This document shows positions 2,284 to 41,890 of a stretch of DNA of 56,618 nt, in pieces. The stretch lies in UHGV virus genome UHGV-2050067; one strand, given 5' to 3'. The notes beneath the pieces were generated by a model, which was given only the letters and a program-made list of their open reading frames with translations, did no database searches and was not told the origin of the DNA. This DNA comes from a virus. The number at the start of each line of letters is the position of its first letter. The stretch's first letter is position 1. A program made the position numbers and the translations under genes.

Positions 2284-4101
2284 TCAATGGTGAAATAAAC
2301 CTTTAACCTTGCTAAAGAATCCGTCTTCTGGCTTTTTATCGAGCCGGTACAGTAATTCTTTTACTTTGTCTTGCAATGCCATTATCAGCTTACGATAACG
2401 TTCATGATTGCGCTGTTGACGCTGTTTCAGGTCGCCCATGTACCGTTTTTGTGCTGCCCGGCGTTGCATGTTGCGAGCAATCAGTTTGTTATATCTGTCT
2501 GATAGTTGGTTATAGCCAGATTGTAAGATGTTCACATTATTTTGCAGTTCCAGTTTATCATCCTCAAGTTCTGCCACTTTAAGCTGATAGCCCTTGATAA
2601 CTAGAGCCTTGTTGCTTGCCTCCTGTTGTTGCGCTTTGATTGTTTCCTTCGCTTCTGCCAGATCTGTACGAATGTCGTTGATTGTTTGTTTGTCTGCCGC
2701 AGCTTTCGCTTTTGCGTCGTCGTTATTTGCAGCGTTGACCTTTTGTCTTAGTTCGCAATTAGTTTTAACCAGATTGTCGCGCTCACTTTCTAGCTTCTGG
2801 CGTTTACCCTGTTCGTCACCAAATGCCTTATTCGCCTTGCTGTATTGGTGTTTCCAATAATCAACGCGGAGTTGGTAGCTGTCGCGATCTTCTCTCGCTA
2901 TGTTGAGCACTCCATGTAATTCCTTGATTTGTCCCTCCAGCGTTTTTACCTGGCATTTAAGATCTCCCACCTGTTTGCTATCTGTTTGCTGCGCAATAGC
3001 CGCGCTGATAGGGTTGTCTTTAAATTTGCGAAAAGCTACTGATAAATCAACCCTGTCCTTTTCCGCTCCTATCCGTGCCACGATCATTCCTGCGATCTCA
3101 AGCGGTGCATATCCTTTTTTGATCTGCATGTCACATTGTTCAGTGCAATAAATATAGCCAGGTAATTTATTCAAGCTTTCAATGCGGTGGCGTAATTCAT
3201 CCTCATTAATACCATACGCCGCAGCAATATCCATCAGATTGATTTCATCGGCGTCATTAACGCTAATATTATGACCGTGAAATTTGAATACTCGCGGTAA
3301 CTCATGTTCATGCGGTTCCGTGTTACTTTCTTGTTTCATTTCGTCACCCTTGTAATAACGCTGTTTTATGCGCTCCGCTTCTTCTGGTGAGATATAATCA
3401 GGGAAGTGGTTCATTTGCTTACCGTAGTATCTAATTTCGCCGTTGATGCGCTCTTTTATTGCGTCGTTAATATTATCGAAATAACCAAAGCCGTGATTTA
3501 TTGTATTAACTTTAATTGTTGCTTCCCATTTATTTTTCGCCTTATTCCATAGAACGCCCTTGATACCGCTATTTCCCCAAGGCTTACGTTTTATGCCTCT
3601 TTCGCCGCGTGATATTAATTTCAGGTTTTCAATTTTCGCGCATGAATTATCGCCGTTTTCTATTACATACCCATCAGGAATAGGGCCGTTAAACATTTCC
3701 CACACAACGCGATGCAGTTGATAATAGCGATCTTTTACACCGATTTGCAAACGTTCATAATCAGTGCCTTTTTTGCATTTAAACCCGCGAATTATATCGC
3801 CTGGTTTAATACGACATTTCCCACGCCCCCTAGTCACCTTACTAATCAGAAAACCATCAGGATGATAATCAAACAGTTCAGGCCAATTTTCCGCGCACTG
3901 GCTGCAATCAGCGTACTGAATATCGCCAGCTTCCACCGCTGTTATTTCCTTCCAATAGCCACCGGCCACCATGCGTACAAACTCGCTTTCTTTACCCCAA
4001 TGATTCCACGTTTGATATTTACGCTTCCGCATAAACACCATTCCTTCATCAATTTTTGCAAACAATTTACTTCCTCTTATCGATATAAAATATCTAGACA
4101 T
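2284..4101 (-). CDS. HNH_3-like/AP2-domain homing-endonuclease-like protein with long C-terminal coiled coil
   Basis: 605-aa ORF; HRVVWEMFNGPIPDGYVIENGDNSCAKIENLKL matches the HNH_3 pattern but lacks the catalytic His-Asp; GIKGVLWNKAKNKWEATI is AP2-like; C-terminal ~300 aa heptad-rich. Confidence 0.55.
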   Translation of the reverse strand: MSRYFISIRGSKLFAKIDEGMVFMRKRKYQTWNHWGKESEFVRMVAGGYWKEITAVEAGDIQYADCSQCAENWPELFDYHPDGFLISKVTRGRGKCRIKPGDIIRGFKCKKGTDYERLQIGVKDRYYQLHRVVWEMFNGPIPDGYVIENGDNSCAKIENLKLISRGERGIKRKPWGNSGIKGVLWNKAKNKWEATIKVNTINHGFGYFDNINDAIKERINGEIRYYGKQMNHFPDYISPEEAERIKQRYYKGDEMKQESNTEPHEHELPRVFKFHGHNISVNDADEINLMDIAAAYGINEDELRHRIESLNKLPGYIYCTEQCDMQIKKGYAPLEIAGMIVARIGAEKDRVDLSVAFRKFKDNPISAAIAQQTDSKQVGDLKCQVKTLEGQIKELHGVLNIAREDRDSYQLRVDYWKHQYSKANKAFGDEQGKRQKLESERDNLVKTNCELRQKVNAANNDDAKAKAAADKQTINDIRTDLAEAKETIKAQQQEASNKALVIKGYQLKVAELEDDKLELQNNVNILQSGYNQLSDRYNKLIARNMQRRAAQKRYMGDLKQRQQRNHERYRKLIMALQDKVKELLYRLDKKPEDGFFSKVKGLFHH

Positions 4102-5921: not shown

Positions 5922-5955
5922 TCGCTTCGCAGCGACACCGGATTTTTAAAGAGCT
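5922..5955 (-). promoter_or_regulatory. candidate nut-like site (boxA-like GCTCTTTAAAAA plus short hairpin) on the minus-strand transcript
   Basis: Minus strand reads GCTCTTTAAAAA, then 8 nt, then tcgc-tgcgaa-gcga stem-loop, upstream of the 5891 start. Confidence 0.3.
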
Positions 5956-5994: not shown

Positions 5995-6058
5995 TTGCAT
6001 CATTGCAACTATGGCCTTACCTTGTTTGCAAGTTTACAGAATGGCGTTGACAGGTCAA
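5995..6058. promoter_or_regulatory. immunity switch region: three palindromic operator candidates spaced about 26 bp apart
   Basis: TTGCAtcatTGCAA (5995-6008), cTTGtttgCAAg (6021-6032), TTGACaggTCAA (6047-6058) between divergent early and repressor genes. Confidence 0.45.
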
Positions 6059-6117
6059 GGCTTTAAAAATACGTTTTGTGACTTGTATCAAACTTTTTTA
6101 GGTTATAGGGTAGCGAC

Positions 6118-6765
6118 ATGAAAACAAAATGGTATGACTTAGCAAAACAACTCATGCGGGCGCAGGGCATGAGCCAGGATTCATTGGCTGATCTCATGGG
6201 GATAACCAAAGGTGGCCTTTCGCACTGGCTGAACGGTCGCCGTGAGCCGAATCTTGAAGATATTGCGCGTATCATGCGGGCGCTTGGGCGTCGGCAATTC
6301 ACTGTTACTCATGACGGAATGGTCATTGATGATTCTGTTTCTAACACGTTGCCGGGAGCGCCACCGCGTGATTTAGGCAGTTACCCGGTTGTTGACTGGA
6401 AGGATGTAGCAAACAATATGGAAGGCACACACCGATCAACATTGCCACACGTTGCTACTAGCGTTATTTGTTCGGATGATAGTTATTGGCTGGTTGCTAA
6501 AGGTGAATCAATGAACGCACCGCAAGGGTTGAGCATCCCGGCGGGGACTATGATACTTGTTGACCCGCACGCGCCAGCTATTGACGGAAAACTTGTTATA
6601 GCACAACTGGAGGAAGGGCAGATACCTACGTTTAAACAGTTGATTATTGATGGAGGCCGAAAACTTTTGCGTTCACTAAATCCGTTGTATCCGCCGATCC
6701 CTATGAATCCAGAGTCAAAAATCATTGGCGTGGTTGTTGACGCGAAGATCGTAAACCTGCCATAA
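6118..6765 (+). CDS. CI-like phage repressor (HTH_XRE plus S24 LexA-like peptidase domain)
   Basis: 215-aa ORF; N-terminal HTH (QDSLADLMGITKGGLSHWLNGRREP); C-terminal S24 motifs (VAKGESMNAPQ Ser, IDGKLVIAQL Lys). Confidence 0.85.
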   Translation: MKTKWYDLAKQLMRAQGMSQDSLADLMGITKGGLSHWLNGRREPNLEDIARIMRALGRRQFTVTHDGMVIDDSVSNTLPGAPPRDLGSYPVVDWKDVANNMEGTHRSTLPHVATSVICSDDSYWLVAKGESMNAPQGLSIPAGTMILVDPHAPAIDGKLVIAQLEEGQIPTFKQLIIDGGRKLLRSLNPLYPPIPMNPESKIIGVVVDAKIVNLP

Positions 6766-6796: not shown

Positions 6797-6888
6797 CCTG
6801 GAAAACACCAAAACGTAAACAGAAAACGTTATTTATTATTTAAATATCAATGGGATATAAAATATTTTAAAAAAGTATACAAAATGGA

Positions 6889-6917
6889 TTGACTCGGTGT
6901 TTTACGGGGCGTATATT
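6889..6917 (+). promoter_or_regulatory. sigma70-like promoter (pL-like) for the rightward operon
   Basis: TTGACT, 17-bp spacer, TATATT; about 45 nt upstream of boxA. Confidence 0.5.
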
Positions 6918-6960
6918 GCGAGTCAAAGGAGGTAGCAAGGCAGGGAAAGGGAAGGTTATT

Positions 6961-6998
6961 TGCTCTTTAACAATCTGGTCAGCCGCTGGAAGTGCGGC
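6961..6998 (+). promoter_or_regulatory. nut-like site: boxA (TGCTCTTTAACAA) plus boxB-like hairpin
   Basis: boxA at 6961-6973 is identical to the rrn-type boxA consensus; gccgc-tggaagt-gcggc stem-loop at 6982-6998; between promoter and N-like ORF. Confidence 0.5.
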
Positions 6999-7055
6999 AA
7001 TTAACGAAGATGATTTTTTTATTAAGTATCATCAAGGATATACGGAGATCAGATT

Positions 7056-7346
7056 ATGAGCGTTACAATCATGTATGGCAAATGTGACAGTAAACTGAAT
7101 GCCAGGGAACGCAGAAAAATAAAAAGAGAAAACGAAAGAAAATCATCACCTGCAATTAATAAAACAGACAATGTGGATAAAGCTATTCGATTTGCAAACG
7201 AGGAAAGGTGCAAACCAAATAGCATTAAAGAACGTCGCAAAGGATCAGTAAAATGGTATATGGAAAATGAAAGCGGCAGCTACTACCACGCAACGCAACC
7301 ACGCCATTTAGGGGAAAAACCCCTGGATAAAGTCCGCTATCATTAA
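7056..7346 (+). CDS. N-like transcription antiterminator candidate (arginine-rich motif)
   Basis: 96-aa basic ORF with N-terminal NARERRKIKRENERK arginine-rich motif; first gene after the promoter and nut-like site. Confidence 0.4.
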   Translation: MSVTIMYGKCDSKLNARERRKIKRENERKSSPAINKTDNVDKAIRFANEERCKPNSIKERRKGSVKWYMENESGSYYHATQPRHLGEKPLDKVRYH

Positions 7347-14733: not shown

Positions 14734-14892
14734 AGTTTACAAAATGGCGTCATTGCGTGATATGGATCACATAATGGCGCTTTTCGCCTTGTTCTGGTGT
14801 ATCCATTTTGTATACTTCAAGCAAACAAAATGCTCTTTAAAAATCCGGCAGCGCTGAAATGCGTAGAAATCACCTGAAAAGGAGAGAGCATT

Positions 14893-34960: not shown

Positions 34961-35320
34961 TTAGTTGAAATACGCATCAACTCTGTGGGCCACGTTTACA
35001 CCATAAGACTCGCCATCCTTAAACGCATTTAGTGACGCTTTATTGTTTTTTGCCGCCTCTTTTAATCCATTGTACTTGCTATTAAGATCTTTCCATTCAG
35101 CGGTTTTTTCTAATACTGGCTTCATTGCGTAATGAATACAGCCAACGTTAAATGGCATTTCCAGATCACCATTACCGTCACCATGCTTTATATCGTACAA
35201 CTGAGCATTATGCGCACATTCACGAAGTATGTATTTTGCGGACGGAGAGTGCTCAGCATTAGCATTAAGCGCAACTCCTGCAAGTACCGCCACGATTAAG
35301 ATTTTTGCCAGACTTTTCAT
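34961..35320 (-). CDS. secreted protein moron (signal peptide, two Cys), unknown function
   Basis: 119 aa; N-terminal MKSLAKILIVAVLAGVALNANA; opposite strand to flanking tail genes. Confidence 0.6.
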   Translation of the reverse strand: MKSLAKILIVAVLAGVALNANAEHSPSAKYILRECAHNAQLYDIKHGDGNGDLEMPFNVGCIHYAMKPVLEKTAEWKDLNSKYNGLKEAAKNNKASLNAFKDGESYGVNVAHRVDAYFN

Positions 35321-35422: not shown

Positions 35423-35500
35423 TTTCTTATCCTCTTTTGCTTCCTCCGGTCAATCCGGCCTTTTAAGTCCCTTCGCTCTATCCCTTTCCTTTGGCTTCTT

Positions 35501-35570
35501 TATACAAAATGTGTTCACTGAAGTAAATCCATTTTGTATAAAATAGAGGCATAGATCACATTTTGTATGA
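35501..35570. promoter_or_regulatory. inverted TACAAAATG / CATTTTGTA motif cluster in divergent intergenic region (candidate moron promoter/operator)
   Basis: tatacaaaatg (35501-35511), ccattttgtataa (35529-35541), cacattttgtatg (35558-35570); same motif recurs at other junctions. Confidence 0.4.
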
Positions 35571-35579
35571 GGTTAAATC

Positions 35580-38500
35580 ATGTCAACAAATTTAGGCACA
35601 ATTTATTACGAGGTTGATGCAAAAACGGGTCAGCTTCTGACTGTTCAGCGCGAGGTAGATCGCGCAACTGGCAAAATGGAAAAGGATTTGGAGCGCGTGG
35701 ATAGTGCCGCCACTCAGGCAAGTAAGTCACTGTCAAAGCTATCCTCGATTGCCAGTGCCCTGGGTGCTGCAATGGCAGCAAAAAAAATCATTGAGTATGC
35801 AAACGCCTGGCAGGAGGTGAATAACAGGCTAATCAATAGCGTTCGTGCTGGTGAATCACTGGCAGACGTTAATCAGCGTGTATTTCAGATCGCGCAAAAT
35901 TCACGAAGCGATCTTGATGCTACGGCAGATCTTTACGGTAAATTAGAGCGCTCGACGCGCGACGCTGGTTTATCGACGCAAGCACTTGGTGATATGGTTG
36001 AAACCATTAACAAAACATTCCGCATTTCTGGCGCTTCTGCCGCTGAAGCAGAAGGCGGGATCCGTCAGTTAGGTCAGTCCCTCGCCAAAGGTATTTTGAA
36101 TGGCGATGAATTTAACTCCGTTACAGAAAACGCCACCAGGCTGTCAGAGGGTTTGGCTAAATCATTGGGCGTATCGTCGGCAGAAATGCGCAAGATGGCA
36201 GCAGAAGGGAAAATCACCCGTGAAGCTATCATTAAAGCCCTTAAGGAAATGAAAGCGGAGGTTGATGCTGAGTTTTCTAAACTCACCCCAACTATGCAGG
36301 AGGCTTTCACTGTTGCAGGCAACAACGCAGCTAAATTTTTCGGCAGCAATTCGTCAATTATGGGCGGGATTGGTGCTTTTAATTCGGCAGTTGTAACCCT
36401 GTCAGAAAACCTTAACGAAATAGCTACTGCATTTATTGGCCTTGCCACTGTGATGGGTGGCAGAGTGGTAAATAAATTCGTGGCTGCAACAGCAGAGGCA
36501 TTAACTAACGCTCAGGCAACCAGGGCACAAACGGCAGCGGCACGGCAGGCCGCTCAGAGTGAATTGGCGCTAGCTAACGCTCAGGTGGTATCAGCACGGC
36601 AATCAGCGGCGGCGTCGGCGGCAAGGCTGAGAGAGGCACAGGCTTATGCTGCGGCAAATGCCGGAACAAAATTCGAAGTTCAGACGCTGAAAGAGTTGGC
36701 TGTAGCCAAAGCACAGAACACAGCGGCATCAAACGCCCTTACTGCGGCAGAGCAGCGCCTTGCTGCGGCCCACACTGCGGCGGCGACTAATGCGGGACTA
36801 CTAAAAACAGCATTTAGCGCTACTCTGGGCGCGATCGGCGGTATCCCTGGCGCGTTAATGCTTGCTGTTTACGGGTTGACAGCATATGTAGATCACGTAG
36901 ATCAAACAGCAGAGGCAAACCGCAACCTTGCTGATTCAGTGGATGTTAGTACCGAATCACTGGAGCGAATGAGCAAGGCGGCTAAACTGGCTGGCGCAGA
37001 TAAACTACAAATATCAATGGGTCAGTTAGAGGAAGACATTGACAGTCTTAACAAACAGATTGACCAGGACACGCAGGCGCTGGAACTGAATAAGCGGGCA
37101 CTGGAGAACGCCGAGGAGGGATCACGCGCTTACGCCAACCTATCGAAAGCTAATCAGGAAATCACAGCCCGCCTGACCAGGGAAGAAGCACAGCGTGAAG
37201 ATATTCTCGACCGCCTTAATCAAATGCAGCGCAAATATATTCTGCTTATGCAGGATACAGATCCGCTAATGAAGACCATTGCCACTTCTTTGGGGTTGGT
37301 GGCAGACGCATACGGAAGAATCACCACAGAAGCAGAACGCGCAGCAGCAGCAACGCAACACGCTTCAGCAGCGCTTAACGCAGATCAACAAGAACTAATG
37401 GATCTGGCAAACCGCCGCCTGGAACTGGCAAAACTCGACTCCAAAACAGCCAGCAGGGAAAAGGCGATTGATGGGTTTAAGCGTGAGGCTGAGAAAGCAA
37501 ACCTGACCGGGGAAGCGTATGAAAAATACATGGCTACAATGACCAAAGCATACGACACAGAGCAGAAACGCGCCGAAGCTGAAAGAAAGGCCAGTCATGG
37601 GAAAAAAACTGGCGAAAGCGAGGAGAAAAAACGTCTAAAAGAGGCTGAACGCCTGCGCAAAGAGCTTGAGAAGCGGGGCCAGAATGTTGCAGACAAATAC
37701 AACGTAGAAGCCGCAGCACAACGGAAATTAAAAGAGGATCAGGATGCGCTAAACGCCGCACTTAAAAGCGGAAAAATAAATACCGAACAATATACTACGG
37801 CATGGAAAGCGCTGGTTGCGGCGGAAGAGCAACGCAAACGCCAATCTAGTTGGGATAATCTGGTAAACAATGAGCTGCAACTACGCGGGCAGCTAGACCC
37901 AATTCAGCAGGCGATGAACGAATGGGCGGTTCGCAAGCAGATGCTCACAGATTTAGGCGCTACAGAGCAATATATGAGGGAGCAAGAAAAAGCGCATGAG
38001 AGGGAAATGCTATCACTTCAGTGGGAGAGGTATAAGGCGCAGTCATTGACCAACCAACTGTTAGGCGATGCTGTTGATGCAATGAGCGGATCTGCAACTA
38101 ACGCGCTTGTCGGCCTGATTAACGGTACTCAAAATTGGCAACAGGCGATCGCTAACATTGGCAATACAATCCTTTCCTCCGTGATTGGTACGATTGTTCA
38201 AATGGGTACTGAGTGGGTCAAGCAGCAATTGATTGGTGATACGGCAAGAACTATGGCAACAACCAAAGCACTGGCAGAGGCGGCAGCGTTATCATCAGCG
38301 TGGGCTACTCCTGCATACTTGGCAAACGTAGCCACGATGGGCGGCGCGGCGACCGTGGGGACTACGAGCCTTACTACTGGTGTGGCTGGAGCAAAAGCGC
38401 TTGGCCTGGCTGGCGCTCGTTATAACGGCGGTGCGGTGGCTGCGGGCAGCCTCTACAAGGTCGGCGAACACGGCAAACCGGAAATCTTTCAGGCAAGCAA

Positions 38501-38732
38501 TGGGAGTCAGTACATGATTCCTGGTGACAACGGCAGGGTAATACCAAATCGCGACATTGGCGGCAGTGGTGGCAACGTTAGTATAAACGCGCCGATTAGT
38601 GTTTACCCACAAAATGGATGGAGTGATGAGGACGCCAAAAAGCTACAGCAGGATATGGAAAAGATCTGCATGGGCCTGATACACCGCGAATCATCCAGAC
38701 CGGGCGGAATGCTGCAACCGCGCCGCAAATAA
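35580..38732 (+). CDS. tail tape measure protein
   Basis: 1050-aa ORF, Ala/Gln-rich extended helical composition, between chaperone and minor tail genes; followed by a terminator. Confidence 0.85.
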   Translation: MSTNLGTIYYEVDAKTGQLLTVQREVDRATGKMEKDLERVDSAATQASKSLSKLSSIASALGAAMAAKKIIEYANAWQEVNNRLINSVRAGESLADVNQRVFQIAQNSRSDLDATADLYGKLERSTRDAGLSTQALGDMVETINKTFRISGASAAEAEGGIRQLGQSLAKGILNGDEFNSVTENATRLSEGLAKSLGVSSAEMRKMAAEGKITREAIIKALKEMKAEVDAEFSKLTPTMQEAFTVAGNNAAKFFGSNSSIMGGIGAFNSAVVTLSENLNEIATAFIGLATVMGGRVVNKFVAATAEALTNAQATRAQTAAARQAAQSELALANAQVVSARQSAAASAARLREAQAYAAANAGTKFEVQTLKELAVAKAQNTAASNALTAAEQRLAAAHTAAATNAGLLKTAFSATLGAIGGIPGALMLAVYGLTAYVDHVDQTAEANRNLADSVDVSTESLERMSKAAKLAGADKLQISMGQLEEDIDSLNKQIDQDTQALELNKRALENAEEGSRAYANLSKANQEITARLTREEAQREDILDRLNQMQRKYILLMQDTDPLMKTIATSLGLVADAYGRITTEAERAAAATQHASAALNADQQELMDLANRRLELAKLDSKTASREKAIDGFKREAEKANLTGEAYEKYMATMTKAYDTEQKRAEAERKASHGKKTGESEEKKRLKEAERLRKELEKRGQNVADKYNVEAAAQRKLKEDQDALNAALKSGKINTEQYTTAWKALVAAEEQRKRQSSWDNLVNNELQLRGQLDPIQQAMNEWAVRKQMLTDLGATEQYMREQEKAHEREMLSLQWERYKAQSLTNQLLGDAVDAMSGSATNALVGLINGTQNWQQAIANIGNTILSSVIGTIVQMGTEWVKQQLIGDTARTMATTKALAEAAALSSAWATPAYLANVATMGGAATVGTTSLTTGVAGAKALGLAGARYNGGAVAAGSLYKVGEHGKPEIFQASNGSQYMIPGDNGRVIPNRDIGGSGGNVSINAPISVYPQNGWSDEDAKKLQQDMEKICMGLIHRESSRPGGMLQPRRK

Positions 38733-38736
38733 ACAA

Positions 38737-38766
38737 AACCCCGGTACAATGCCGGGGTTATCTTTT
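38737..38766. terminator. bidirectional rho-independent terminator
   Basis: aaccccgg-tacaatg-ccggggtt hairpin with T/A-rich tracts on both sides. Confidence 0.6.
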
Positions 38767-38941
38767 AGTTGTTCTCAAAACCTGTGTATCCTCTCTCAAT
38801 TTTCCCGCCTCTTACGCTTTTAGCGAATACAGCGTCAGTGTATCTGAAAAACGGTTCTGTGTATGTCTCACCTTTGCTATCCATCCATTTAACTACCCAG
38901 GCCATGCGTTTAATGTTGCTTTTGCTTGCTGTAGTTTTCAT
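38765..38941 (-). CDS. small protein (58 aa), third gene of minus-strand moron cassette
   Basis: MKTTASKSNIKRMAWVVKWMDSKGETYTEPFFRYTDAVFAKSVRGGKIERGYTGFENN with SD ggagg; stop abuts the terminator; absent from the track. Confidence 0.4.
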   Translation of the reverse strand: MKTTASKSNIKRMAWVVKWMDSKGETYTEPFFRYTDAVFAKSVRGGKIERGYTGFENN

Positions 38942-38972
38942 TTTGTTTTCCTCCGCAACATTCCAGTCTGTA

Positions 38973-39227
38973 TCACTTGTGAGCGCCTTTTACGCCACAT
39001 AACTTGTTATAGGCATGGTGCTCAACAATTAACCAAACCTTCAAATCTTCGCTAAACAGCCTCCAATCAAGATTGATATCCATTTTGTATCCGTAACCGT
39101 CGCGTAACTTTTTGGGGTAAACTTCTTTTCTCAGAAAGGCGTTAAGCAATTCCTTACCTTTCTTGATGATCCGGTCCTGTGCGTTTTTCTGTGCTTTCAA
39201 GTTTTTACCAATCGCCACCAATTTCAT
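38973..39227 (-). CDS. RelE/YafQ/ParE-superfamily-like toxin candidate
   Basis: ATG at 39227 with SD gtgggg; ...YKMDINLDWRLFSEDLKVWLIVEHHAYNKL resembles the RelE/YafQ C-terminal pattern. Confidence 0.4.
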   Translation of the reverse strand: MKLVAIGKNLKAQKNAQDRIIKKGKELLNAFLRKEVYPKKLRDGYGYKMDINLDWRLFSEDLKVWLIVEHHAYNKLCGVKGAHK

Positions 39228-39245
39228 AACACACCCCACAATCCA

Positions 39246-39401
39246 TTAGTTGACCACTTTCAGGAAGAAATCACGGTATTCATCTTCTTTTGCATTCATC
39301 ATGAATTGACCGTATTTGAATGCATCATCAAAGCCCTTCACAATCGCAACTTCCACCTGTTCGAATGCTTTGTTCAGCATCACAACCACATAGCGTTCCA
39401 T
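39246..39401 (-). CDS. small protein (51 aa) upstream of the RelE-like gene; possible cognate partner
   Basis: ATG at 39401 with strong SD agggggg; MERYVVVMLNKAFEQVEVAIVKGFDDAFKYGQFMMNAKEDEYRDFFLKVVN. Confidence 0.4.
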   Translation of the reverse strand: MERYVVVMLNKAFEQVEVAIVKGFDDAFKYGQFMMNAKEDEYRDFFLKVVN

Positions 39402-39571
39402 GTTGTCCCCCCTTTGTCGGTACTGCTTTTTCTTCTTGCTTACTATATACATCTTGTCACGCCTTATGTGAAGCCATTTTGTAAACTGGTTATAATTCTT
39501 GTGATGAATTTCTCATTTTTCGCGTAGAAGCGCGTAAAGATGTATGCAATATGTAACTTATAGGGGGAATC

Positions 39572-39925
39572 ATGCCAGAAGTTTTCAGATGGACGCCGCA
39601 AAGAAGCTACAGCGTGACCAGGGAACCAAATGTGTCTGTCGTTAAACTTGGTGACAACTATGAACAAAGGCAGGCGAAAGGGATTAACACGTTGCTTGAT
39701 AGTTATACCCTGGTTTTCAAAGGCAGTAGCGCGGGATGTGGTGATGGTGGAAACGTGGCGATCCAGGCTGAAGCATTTTTGAGGGCGCGCGGCGCTGTCG
39801 ATGCTTTCTACTGGACGCCTTCGATGGATGGGGTGCAAAGGCTTTTCGTTTGCCGTAGCTGGAGCATGACCAAAGACGGGCCTGTGTACACGCTAAACGC
39901 AACGTTTGAACAAGTTGTTGGCTAA
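39572..39925 (+). CDS. minor tail protein M-like
   Basis: 117 aa; MPEVFRWTPQRSYSV...ATFEQVVG parallels lambda gpM (FRW...FEQVV) as recalled. Confidence 0.7.
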   Translation: MPEVFRWTPQRSYSVTREPNVSVVKLGDNYEQRQAKGINTLLDSYTLVFKGSSAGCGDGGNVAIQAEAFLRARGAVDAFYWTPSMDGVQRLFVCRSWSMTKDGPVYTLNATFEQVVG

Positions 39926-40122
39926 TGGGGGTTGTTATGTACGGGACTTGTGTAGTTGACAAAACTTACGCTTTTACATTGTTTGACGACTATGAGATCA
40001 ACGACCTTACTGTAAAAGCTGACAACGGCGATATATGGTATCTTCACGACGTTGGTGATGGGTACGTGGGGTGTAGATCCCGGGAAGGGAAGGAGGTTTT
40101 ATTTTTGGTTGATGGCGTATAA
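39925..40122 (+). CDS. hypothetical protein (65 aa)
   Basis: ORF track; start overlaps the M stop; followed by a terminator. Confidence 0.35.
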   Translation: MGVVMYGTCVVDKTYAFTLFDDYEINDLTVKADNGDIWYLHDVGDGYVGCRSREGKEVLFLVDGV

Positions 40123-40126
40123 ACAC

Positions 40127-40155
40127 AACCCCGCGAGAAGCGGGGTTATTGTTAT
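40127..40155. terminator. bidirectional rho-independent terminator
   Basis: aaccccgc-gagaa-gcggggtt hairpin followed by attgttatt. Confidence 0.55.
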
Positions 40156-40268
40156 TCCATTTCCATTAATGCTATATTTTCCGCTATCGTTTTCCAGTCC
40201 AGTTCTACAGCATGAACACCAAATACTATCAATCCCATTATTATTAGCGCCAAAACTTCTATTTTCAT
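40152..40268 (-). CDS. mini-ORF, 38-aa hydrophobic peptide, last gene of minus-strand cassette
   Basis: MKIEVLALIIMGLIVFGVHAVELDWKTIAENIALMEME with SD aggtga. Confidence 0.3.
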   Translation of the reverse strand: MKIEVLALIIMGLIVFGVHAVELDWKTIAENIALMEME

Positions 40269-40278
40269 AATCTGTCAC

Positions 40279-40527
40279 CTATAAGTTATCACGCAGATAA
40301 TTAACGCCCTTATCAGTGACGAATGAATGATTAACCTGGTTTTCGTCCGTCATGATGATAAATAACTTTTCCTGTAGGTATTTCGCTTTTGGGTACAGCG
40401 TTAAACAGACCTGGTACAGTATCCCGCGCTCAATCAGCAAATCAATAAATTCGTGCTCATGATAACCGATGAGGCGGGCGGCCTGTTTCAACGTGTACAC
40501 ATAATCGCCGTGATTGCGCCTCCCCAT
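40279..40527 (-). CDS. hypothetical protein (82 aa), moron cassette
   Basis: ORF track; opposite strand to tail genes. Confidence 0.45.
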   Translation of the reverse strand: MGRRNHGDYVYTLKQAARLIGYHEHEFIDLLIERGILYQVCLTLYPKAKYLQEKLFIIMTDENQVNHSFVTDKGVNYLRDNL

Positions 40528-40536
40528 GTTGCCGCC

Positions 40537-40887
40537 TTATTTATCGAATGCGCCCAGGTTATCTATGCAGAAGTCTTTCGCAGCTTTTTCGTATTCGCGT
40601 TTTGCTTCTGGATCGTCAGCAGGGAAACCTTTTGCGTGTATTTCACCAGGGCAAGACTGATCCATAGAGTCAGCAAATTCAACACTGACGTTAAAGTTAA
40701 TATCTTTCGGGTTCATCTCTTCCACCTTATCCTGCACTTGTACCGGAATAACATAATAATCACGAGCACTAGACCAACAGCGGAGCAATTCACAACCTTC
40801 ATCACGCGCTGATTCGAATGTGTCAAATAGCCCCATGCTTTCCCATTCGCATTTATCAGTCCACACGTCTAACCTGTATTTTTTCAT
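40537..40887 (-). CDS. hypothetical protein (116 aa), moron cassette
   Basis: ORF track; acidic, four Cys. Confidence 0.45.
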   Translation of the reverse strand: MKKYRLDVWTDKCEWESMGLFDTFESARDEGCELLRCWSSARDYYVIPVQVQDKVEEMNPKDINFNVSVEFADSMDQSCPGEIHAKGFPADDPEAKREYEKAAKDFCIDNLGAFDK

Positions 40888-40901
40888 TTTTTGTTAACCT
40901 C

Positions 40902-41132
40902 CTATTTGGCAGGTTCGATCCTGTATCCCAAAACGCGGTCATCTTCAGCAAGTAAAAGCGCGTCAGTTAGTGCCTCGCCTTCGTCTTTATACAGAGCTAC
41001 AGTCATTTCCCTGCCGCCTGACAGGAATACCGTCAACCTCCACACCTTATCAGCCATCCCACACCTCCGCGCCATTTTGTTAACCCTGCTTCCTTTTGAG
41101 TACAATATACATATTGTAAAAAGCGCTATCAA
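40902..41132 (-). CDS. hypothetical protein (76 aa or shorter), first gene of moron cassette
   Basis: ORF track; inverted repeat TACAATAT-ac-ATATTGTA lies just upstream at about 41100-41120. Confidence 0.4.
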   Translation of the reverse strand: MIALFTICILYSKGSRVNKMARRCGMADKVWRLTVFLSGGREMTVALYKDEGEALTDALLLAEDDRVLGYRIEPAK

Positions 41133-41185
41133 CCGTTTTGGTATGATTTAGCGTGACAGCGATCACAAAATGACAAGGTGAAAAA

Positions 41186-41890
41186 ATGCGCAGCATACCT
41201 ACAGAAATGATTATTGATTCCGTCGATGCCGGAGTCGGCGCAGTAATTGACTTGTTTGAATTAGACCTAACGCCCCTGGGTGGCGAGGTTATCCGCTTCC
41301 ATTCCGGCGCGAATGGCTATTACGGCCCGGTTATCTGGAAGGGAGTGACTTACAACAGCTACCCAATCGAGGCTACTGGCTTCGAAATGAAAAACGAAGG
41401 CGTTTACTCGCGCCCGCAAATGGTTGTAGCCAACATTGGCGGACTCATTACGGGGATGAATAACGATTTCAACGACCTGCGAGGAATGAAGGTTACGCGC
41501 CGCCAGGTGGAAGTAAAATACCTGGATGCCATCAATTTCCCTAACGGCAATCCAGATGCAGATCCATCTATTGAGGCTGTATCTTTTTACGTCGTTGAAG
41601 CGATGAGCGAAGAAACAGCGGACCAGGTGCAATATGAACTGTCAACGCCAATTGATGCTGATAAGGCGGTTATCCCTGGGCGCACAATTCTCGCTGACGT
41701 TTGCCAGTGGCAATATCGCGGCGACGGTTGCAGATACAGTGGCGGCCCCGTAGCTACTGACAAAGACGAGCCAACCAGTGATCCGAAGCTGGATAAATGC
41801 AGCCACCGCCTGAGCGGTTGCCGTTTGCGTTTTCCGCGTCCTAATCCGTTACCAATTTCCTGTTTCCCAGGATCCAGCAAGGTGGGTTGA
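41186..41890 (+). CDS. minor tail protein L-like
   Basis: 234 aa; lambda gpL-like N-terminus and Cys-rich C-terminus (CQWQYRGDGCRYSG...CSHRLSGCRLRF). Confidence 0.75.
   Translation: MRSIPTEMIIDSVDAGVGAVIDLFELDLTPLGGEVIRFHSGANGYYGPVIWKGVTYNSYPIEATGFEMKNEGVYSRPQMVVANIGGLITGMNNDFNDLRGMKVTRRQVEVKYLDAINFPNGNPDADPSIEAVSFYVVEAMSEETADQVQYELSTPIDADKAVIPGRTILADVCQWQYRGDGCRYSGGPVATDKDEPTSDPKLDKCSHRLSGCRLRFPRPNPLPISCFPGSSKVG

Follow-up and report, generated by a model that had tools for sequence, protein, structure and literature searches.

The virus genome UHGV-2050067 (56,618 nt; the whole of this stretch is called the window here) carries three short minus-strand genes within its tail operon. The initial annotation, made from the sequence alone, proposed that they might form a defence cargo, with a RelE/YafQ-like toxin candidate encoded by the middle gene and a possible antitoxin or accessory factor on either side. 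This raises the question of whether the three open reading frames are genes at all, what kind of protein the middle one encodes, and whether its neighbours make it a toxin-antitoxin (TA) system or something else.

Layout and transcription signals of the cassette

The source genome belongs to a mEp021-like (‘mEpimmI’) temperate coliphage. The cassette region was matched at 83-90% DNA identity in the phages mEp554, mEp010, mEp044, mEp021, mEp013, mEp515 and MagusPhagus, and also in prophages of 33 of 5,426 complete E. coli genomes. The three minus-strand genes, designated A, B and C, were found as annotated, inserted between the tape-measure and gpM-like tail genes (Table 1). Each is preceded by a purine-rich ribosome-binding site: the G-rich AAAGGGGGG 5 nt 5’ of the ATG of A, GGGGTG upstream of the start of B, and GGAGG 8 nt upstream of the start of C, in agreement with the Shine-Dalgarno (SD) sequences claimed earlier for the flanking 51-aa and 58-aa genes. 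The length (84 aa) and start (39227) given for the middle gene were likewise correct, but its C-terminal end is not ...YNKL and goes on to CGVKGAHK. Pairwise dN/dS among relatives was 0.13 for A (28 distinct sequences), 0.08 for B (37) and 0.14 for C (13). These low ratios, together with a score for B above the Pfam threshold, indicate that A, B and C are real genes under purifying selection and not chance open reading frames.

Table 1. Coordinates of the cassette, its flanking genes, the second cassette and the upstream element in the window
Feature	Coordinates	Strand	Description
Gene A	39401..39246	-	51 aa, ATG; acidic, promoter-proximal; specific to mEp021-like lineage; putative partner/modulator of B
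Gene B	39227..38973	-	84 aa; basic; PF24732 member, RelE/ParE-superfamily fold; putative RNase-type effector
Gene C	38941..38765	-	58 aa; basic; facultative downstream cargo
Cassette promoter	39444..39488	-	Element AGTTTACAAAATGGC + TTCACA + 17 nt + TATATA
Bidirectional intrinsic terminator	38726..38766	.	Common to tape-measure gene (+) and cassette (-)
Tape-measure protein gene (flank)	35580..38732	+	PF20155, E=7.5e-55
gpM-like minor tail protein gene (flank)	39572..39925	+	PF05939, E=1.1e-28
Second cassette gene	40279..40527	-	82 aa, KilAC/ANT-domain
Second cassette gene	40537..40887	-	116 aa
Second cassette gene	40902..41132	-	Up to 76 aa
Upstream element copies	378-392, 6031-6045, 6874-6888, 14734-14748, 20090-20102, 35500-35512	+	
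Upstream element copies	14802-14816, 35529-35541, 39473-39487, 41071-41085	-	

The terminator proposed at 38737-38766 was borne out by a G+C stem of 8-10 bp (38737-38759) with T-runs on both strands. The minus-strand RNA folds stably (-16.4 kcal/mol, z = -2.94), and it is annotated as a terminator in the phages mEp554 and mEp021. A strict sigma-70 consensus scan of 39402-39571, the interval proposed as the cassette’s own promoter region, called no promoter because the -10 hexamer, TATATA, is without the final T. The interval contains on the minus strand a -35 hexamer, TTCACA (39472..39467), a 17-nt spacer and TATATA (39449..39444), and in an alignment of 12 relatives the hexamers were conserved and the spacer sequence was variable.

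Directly 5’ of the -35 hexamer lies the 15-mer AGTTTACAAAATGGC (39487..39473), an element that occurs seven times in the window against 0.39 expected (none of 100 shuffles gave seven); its 13-mer form has 25 matches against 5.7 expected, and the consensus over 13-15 nt is GT(A/T)TACA(A/G)AATGG(C/A). Six of its copies, the one at the cassette promoter and those at 6032+, 6875+, 20090+, 35500+ and 35529-, are followed after 1-2 nt by a -35 and a -10 hexamer that lie 17 nt apart. The promoters that bear it include that of the CI-like repressor gene (6118..6765), a strong early promoter 5’ of a boxA/boxB site and an N-like gene (7056), and those of minus-strand accessory cassettes. The element lacks palindromic symmetry and may act as an UP-like sequence or be bound by a regulator. 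The conservation of the hexamers and the recurrence of the element before other -35/-10 pairs argue for a genuine cassette promoter of this phage’s own type, as the earlier claim of a separate promoter region had implied. Since the element is common to the repressor and early promoters, it is uninformative on the expression of the cassette in lysogens.

At 6889-7000 the early promoter (TTGACT-17-TATATT) is followed by a boxA-like TGCTCTTTAA and then by GCCGCTGGAAGTGCGGC, a hairpin resembling boxB; a 96-aa open reading frame lies downstream at 7056. This arrangement matches nutR1 described for mEp021 (nut sites per PMC11893012). The boxA-like CTTTAAAAAT(A/C)CG is also present at 5939-5951(-) and 6061-6073(+).

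The locus has what is expected of a phage moron, namely a promoter, a terminator, an insertion between conserved genes and mosaic content, the last seen over 50 related loci. Like the lambdoid morons HK97 gp15 and lambda lom and bor, it is a short insert between essential late genes, equipped with a promoter and a terminator and present in some relatives but not in others. Unlike them, it has a fixed A-B head followed by interchangeable tail genes, and its promoter comes from a phage-wide family that includes immunity-region promoters.

Gene B and the RelE/ParE fold

B is strongly basic (pI 9.9, net charge about +10) and scored 46 bits against the Pfam model PF24732 (ParE_like; gathering threshold 24.4, E=5.1e-12). 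Residues 19-75 of B align to positions 2-67 of the 67-position model, which makes B, by sequence comparison, a clear full-length member of PF24732; it also matched PHROG 1525. The homologues retrieved, close or distant, have PF24732 as well, short fragments aside. Nothing else in Pfam was matched even at E<=10. HMMER searches of the PDB with B and with a broad B alignment matched no solved RelE/ParE toxin or other structure.

Only one of five AlphaFold (AF2) models of B was confident (pLDDT 82.7). In this model one helix packs on a sheet of three strands and a short helix comes after it, the compact alpha/beta arrangement of the RelE/ParE structural superfamily. The model is supported by its superposition on PF24732 proteins from jumbo phages whose structures were predicted independently (TM 0.72-0.87). 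The best fold matches were the RNase members YoeB, RelE and YafQ, albeit with modest TM-scores to PDB toxins (0.45-0.52), and RNase members ranked above ParE members in both fold searches, one of them by Foldseek. The depositors of phage Muenster had recorded an HHpred match to YafQ (97.7%) for a relative 33% identical to B. The profile and model comparisons support a RelE/ParE fold for B. The initial annotation had called for comparing the middle gene with RelE/YafQ by profile or structure prediction; when this was done the fold was found, and PF24732 membership with YoeB, RelE and YafQ as top matches agrees with the RelE/YafQ/ParE-like protein it had proposed. The assignment is not new and is already in public annotation, where RefSeq, PGAP and UniRef name homologues of B, including those in E. 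coli prophages, ‘ParE family toxin-like protein’. The family was named for its fold, and PF24732 is catalogued but uncharacterised; our literature search found no paper mentioning it or assaying the activity of any member, and the mEpimmI genome paper does not discuss the cassette or toxins.

Among members of the wider family, some only 29% identical, L41, R56 and H70 never vary and K40 and N74 hardly do; position 73 is mostly Tyr, with Phe in a few sequences. The charge pattern of B is strongly conserved, and no conserved C-terminal tail was seen beyond the YN motif. H70, Y73 and N74 fall just after the last strand of B, and RelE-type RNases have their acid/base residues after the last strand. 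A weak hhalign alignment to four YoeB sequences (E 0.025), used solely for residue correspondence, placed R56 on YoeB R65 and K39 on YoeB E46.

In one relative (IMGVR_UViG_3300045988_049781, L046/L102) an indel swaps the first 7 residues of B, and a GTG start gives MSYETGNYRKNLK... at the N terminus. Since 5 contigs have the variant protein (P0032), it is probably a tolerated N-terminal variant and not a sequencing error.

The partners of B

We compared 50 related loci. A lies 17-21 nt 5’ of B in 47 of them (about 94%), and 14 cassettes consist of A and B only. In the window, 18 nt separate the stop of A from the start of B, and a single promoter and a single terminator serve both. Among 44 A-bearing viral contigs, 43 have a full-length B directly downstream and in the remaining one the N terminus of B is altered; A was in no case found there without a B gene. 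Many DNA matches between relatives stop exactly at the stop codon of B (query position 374). From these patterns A-B appears as the fixed core of the cassette, with A the only plausible candidate for a partner of B.

The reverse association is looser. In L038, a prophage in the completely sequenced genome of the cultured isolate E. coli UMNK88, and in another, diverged prophage (L031), A is precisely absent and B directly follows the same promoter and SD. Both prophages have an intact B, and the two copies differ by 7 synonymous and 3 non-synonymous changes (pS 0.141 vs pN 0.015), so that B has been kept by selection without A. In a third genome (L009) A is frameshifted by a 1-nt deletion. Identity to the B of the window was 95%, 82% and 68% among B alleles accompanied by one and the same A allele; A and B alleles are shuffled or recombined among relatives, with no sign of co-variation.

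A is an acidic 51-aa protein (pI 4.85) that matched phrog_29810 (E=1.7e-35). It had no match in Pfam, PADLOC or NCBIfam and no similarity to antitoxin families or DNA-binding proteins, and among PDB sequences only a chance-level match to CagT was found. All 60 homologues with E <= 0.01 were close relatives; 53 are at least 76% identical over at least 98% of A, and the other seven are fragments or a frame-shifted copy. No homologue was found outside the mEp021-like phage group. The AF2 model of A, one long helix, is uninformative and conflicts with its Val/Ile-rich segments. The conserved product, as judged from the relatives, is the 51-aa form. Many public records start A further upstream and list it with 68 aa, or with 76 or 89 aa. 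The 68-aa form (ATG 39452) was rejected, its extension overlapping the predicted -10 hexamer and being missing from many relatives.

C had no match in Pfam, PADLOC, NCBIfam or the PDB. It is carried by 24 of the 50 cassettes, usually behind a 30-aa gene (F2) that is missing in this genome, and the region downstream of B is mosaic throughout: F2 is present at 26 loci, a 60-aa gene (F4) at 19 and a 49-aa gene at seven, and some loci have zinc-ribbon and other inserts there. At least eight recurrent gene families mix and match in the cassettes. Because everything 3’ of B is mosaic, C is interchangeable downstream cargo and no part of a B system.

The F2-like/C-like pair was also found on an unrelated contig (L003; Logan contig SRR25667327_70150), 2.3 kb from a B-like gene. 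This contig is a 5.8-kb array of 16 small one-directional genes, with the pair at 175-539 and the B-like gene (52% identical to B) at 2838-3104. One other gene on it has about 85% DNA identity to virulent coliphages of ~150 kb. The presence in one array of the F2-like/C-like pair, a B-like gene and a virulent-coliphage gene places the small cassette genes in a pool common to temperate and virulent phages. The suggestion that the 58-aa protein is a component of the system therefore fails: it is in just 24 of 50 cassettes, travels with F2 and recurs with it on this contig. In the three-gene PaaR2-PaaA2-ParE2 systems of E. coli O157:H7 prophages the third gene is a required regulator; here C is facultative cargo, and A, B and C have no sequence similarity to that system.

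Possible functions of the cassette

The explanation we prefer, while giving it somewhat less than an even chance, is a modular accessory cassette in which B is a RelE-fold effector, probably an RNase, A is its dedicated but dispensable partner, and C is unrelated cargo. A sigma-70 promoter belonging to the cassette would drive its transcription, antisense to the tail genes, and the transcript would end at the terminator that the cassette has in common with the tape-measure gene. B would be an mRNA endonuclease of the RelE/YoeB/YafQ type, in which Arg56 would be the counterpart of YoeB Arg65 and His70, Tyr73 and Asn74 would form an acid/base cluster after the last strand. The strongly basic surface of B may bind RNA or the ribosome, and B would shut down translation. 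A, a small acidic protein dedicated to B, would most likely bind B and temper or time its activity, and C would play no part in the function of A and B. We infer the RNase activity of B, the binding of A to B and the timing of expression from the comparisons given here.

An effector of this kind would differ from YefM-YoeB, RelBE and DinJ-YafQ in several ways. These systems have no HMMER-detectable similarity to B. In the weak hhalign alignment the position of YoeB Glu46 is Lys in B, and the putative acid/base cluster is H-x-x-Y-N in B against H-Y at the C terminus of the RelE/YoeB/YafQ type. The upstream partner, A, shows no similarity to Phd/YefM, RelB or DinJ and can be dispensed with in nature.

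An exhaustive HMMER search of 1.84 billion representatives returned only 10 proteins at E <= 0.001; the subfamily is small and isolated. A profile search gave 69 clusters, of which 59 are full-length and carry PF24732 and 10 are 40-61-aa fragments without a Pfam call. The PF24732 members sampled are mostly in phages or prophages and mostly without an obvious partner gene. In virulent phages the relatives lie in long one-directional arrays of small unannotated genes; such arrays were seen in Sortsne, in PBECO4-like phages and, for jumbo phages of the RaK2/Muenster type, in the terminal-repeat region. In Mixta and related prophages the PF24732 gene is in an operon running from a CI-like repressor gene towards the integrase, and it overlaps both neighbours by 4 nt; a further member is on Pantoea plasmids with genes of integrative-conjugative-element and SPI-7-island type. 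No conserved neighbour or partner was found among these distant contexts. Such a distribution fits a phage tool used during infection better than an addiction or defence module of lysogens.

This distribution bears on a first alternative, which we consider improbable though the strongest of the rivals: that B is a solo effector comparable to RegB of phage T4, a RelE-fold RNase that needs no antitoxin, would be produced early in lytic growth to remodel host or phage mRNA pools or counter a host system, and would be silent in the lysogen, with A unrelated or regulatory. RegB is roughly twice as long as B. Its absence from the structural matches of B in two fold searches counts against the comparison. 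RegB is a phage RNase of the RelE/YoeB fold with no known antitoxin, made early in infection; it carries an additional helix at its N terminus, and its two catalytic histidines are arranged differently (PMC3014915). It is the closest functional precedent for the PF24732 genes of virulent phages. The alternative is consistent with the relatives in the early or terminal-repeat arrays of Sortsne, RaK2/Muenster and PBECO4-like phages and with the one on contig L003, with those in the repressor-gene operon described above for Mixta and related prophages, and with the tolerance of B for the loss of A. The cassette promoter also shares its element and layout with the early promoter that leads into boxA/boxB and the N-like gene; however, this element precedes the repressor-gene promoter too, and early-only expression is not implied. 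A, moreover, is under purifying selection, lies directly 5’ of B and never occurs without a B gene, which argues for a functional tie between the two. A version of this idea that accommodates A, and that we hold to be possible but doubtful, is that PF24732, found nearly always on phages and other mobile elements, comprises RelE-fold RNases without an obligatory antitoxin, analogous to RegB and used early by virulent and temperate phages for reprogramming translation or disarming a host system, and that the mEp021 lineage secondarily acquired A as a private modulator. The cassette would then be a case of a toxin fold gaining a partner and not a decayed TA module.

The classical type II TA system, with A as labile antitoxin and B as toxin, aborting infection or stabilising the prophage, seems to us unlikely. 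The order of a small acidic gene and a basic toxin-fold gene, tightly spaced behind one promoter, is what such a system would have, and A is an adjacent, co-transcribed small partner linked to B in most relatives. The moron-like layout, with a promoter and terminator antisense to late genes, and the PGAP and UniRef label of B would also suit it. A is not, however, a recognisable antitoxin in Pfam, NCBIfam, PADLOC or the PDB, and neither A, B nor C matched the PADLOC-DB defence models (E<=10) or NCBIfam. Rfam (E<=1) and tandem-repeat scans of 38500-41300 found nothing, so that the interval gives no hint of an RNA antitoxin of type I or III. B is intact and under selection without A in UMNK88 and L031, unlike a classical type II toxin, which should not tolerate the loss of its antitoxin; B is sometimes alone and A never, which is the reverse of the asymmetry of TA pairs, and distant members of the family have no conserved neighbour. 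The survival of B without A suggests that A is not a conventional or indispensable antitoxin. Of the earlier view of both flanking proteins as antitoxin or accessory factors, then, the linkage of A to B stands, whereas A is without antitoxin similarity and C is cargo. The proposal of a TA or defence moron is partly supported by the moron layout, the toxin fold and the A-B linkage, and weakened by B without A and by the empty PADLOC search, which leaves defence cargo as one possibility that we do not favour.

A third alternative, that B is a ParE-type poison that blocks DNA gyrase rather than cutting RNA, the activity to which its Pfam and PGAP name would point, is in our judgement very unlikely as an account of the cassette. 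B did not match the Pfam ParE_toxin model at E <= 10, RNase members outranked ParE members in both fold searches, and the wider family has no conserved C-terminal tail past the YN motif. To our knowledge, ParE toxins do not have the catalytic-type signature of an invariant Arg and His with a near-invariant Asn. With R56 and H70 invariant, N74 nearly so and B very basic, an RNase is favoured over a gyrase poison and is fairly probable. That B is a non-toxic, non-enzymatic RelE-fold decoy or binder of a host factor, in a cassette that is a string of independent accessory genes, would agree with the highly mosaic content of at least eight recurrent families and with the tolerated loss of A, but it can be nearly dismissed given an Arg and a His invariant over 29-100% identity, the strongly conserved charge pattern and the tight A-B linkage.

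If B is an active RNase without a mandatory antidote, as the preferred modular cassette would allow, PF24732 would be the second case, after T4 RegB, of the offensive or regulatory use of a toxin fold, and the A-B pair would be a natural system for how a toxin gains a dedicated inhibitor. The automatic label ‘ParE family toxin-like’ in prophage tail regions is no evidence of a TA defence system. The shared promoter element connects the cassettes with promoters of the immunity region in a phage group that the human gut commonly harbours, and this link makes the regulation of accessory cassettes directly testable.

A second minus-strand cassette lies at 40127-41185 (genes in Table 1), between a gpM-adjacent 65-aa open reading frame (39925..40122) and gpL (41186..41890). 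It has a bidirectional terminator at 40127-40147 and a promoter, TTGATA-17-TATATT (41132..41104), and its content varies among relatives too. Just 5’ of the tape-measure gene is a minus-strand open reading frame of 119 aa (34961..35320) with no Pfam match, and between the two are divergent promoters at 35500+ and 35529-, each with the shared element. The tail region of this phage appears to be segmented by antisense accessory units.
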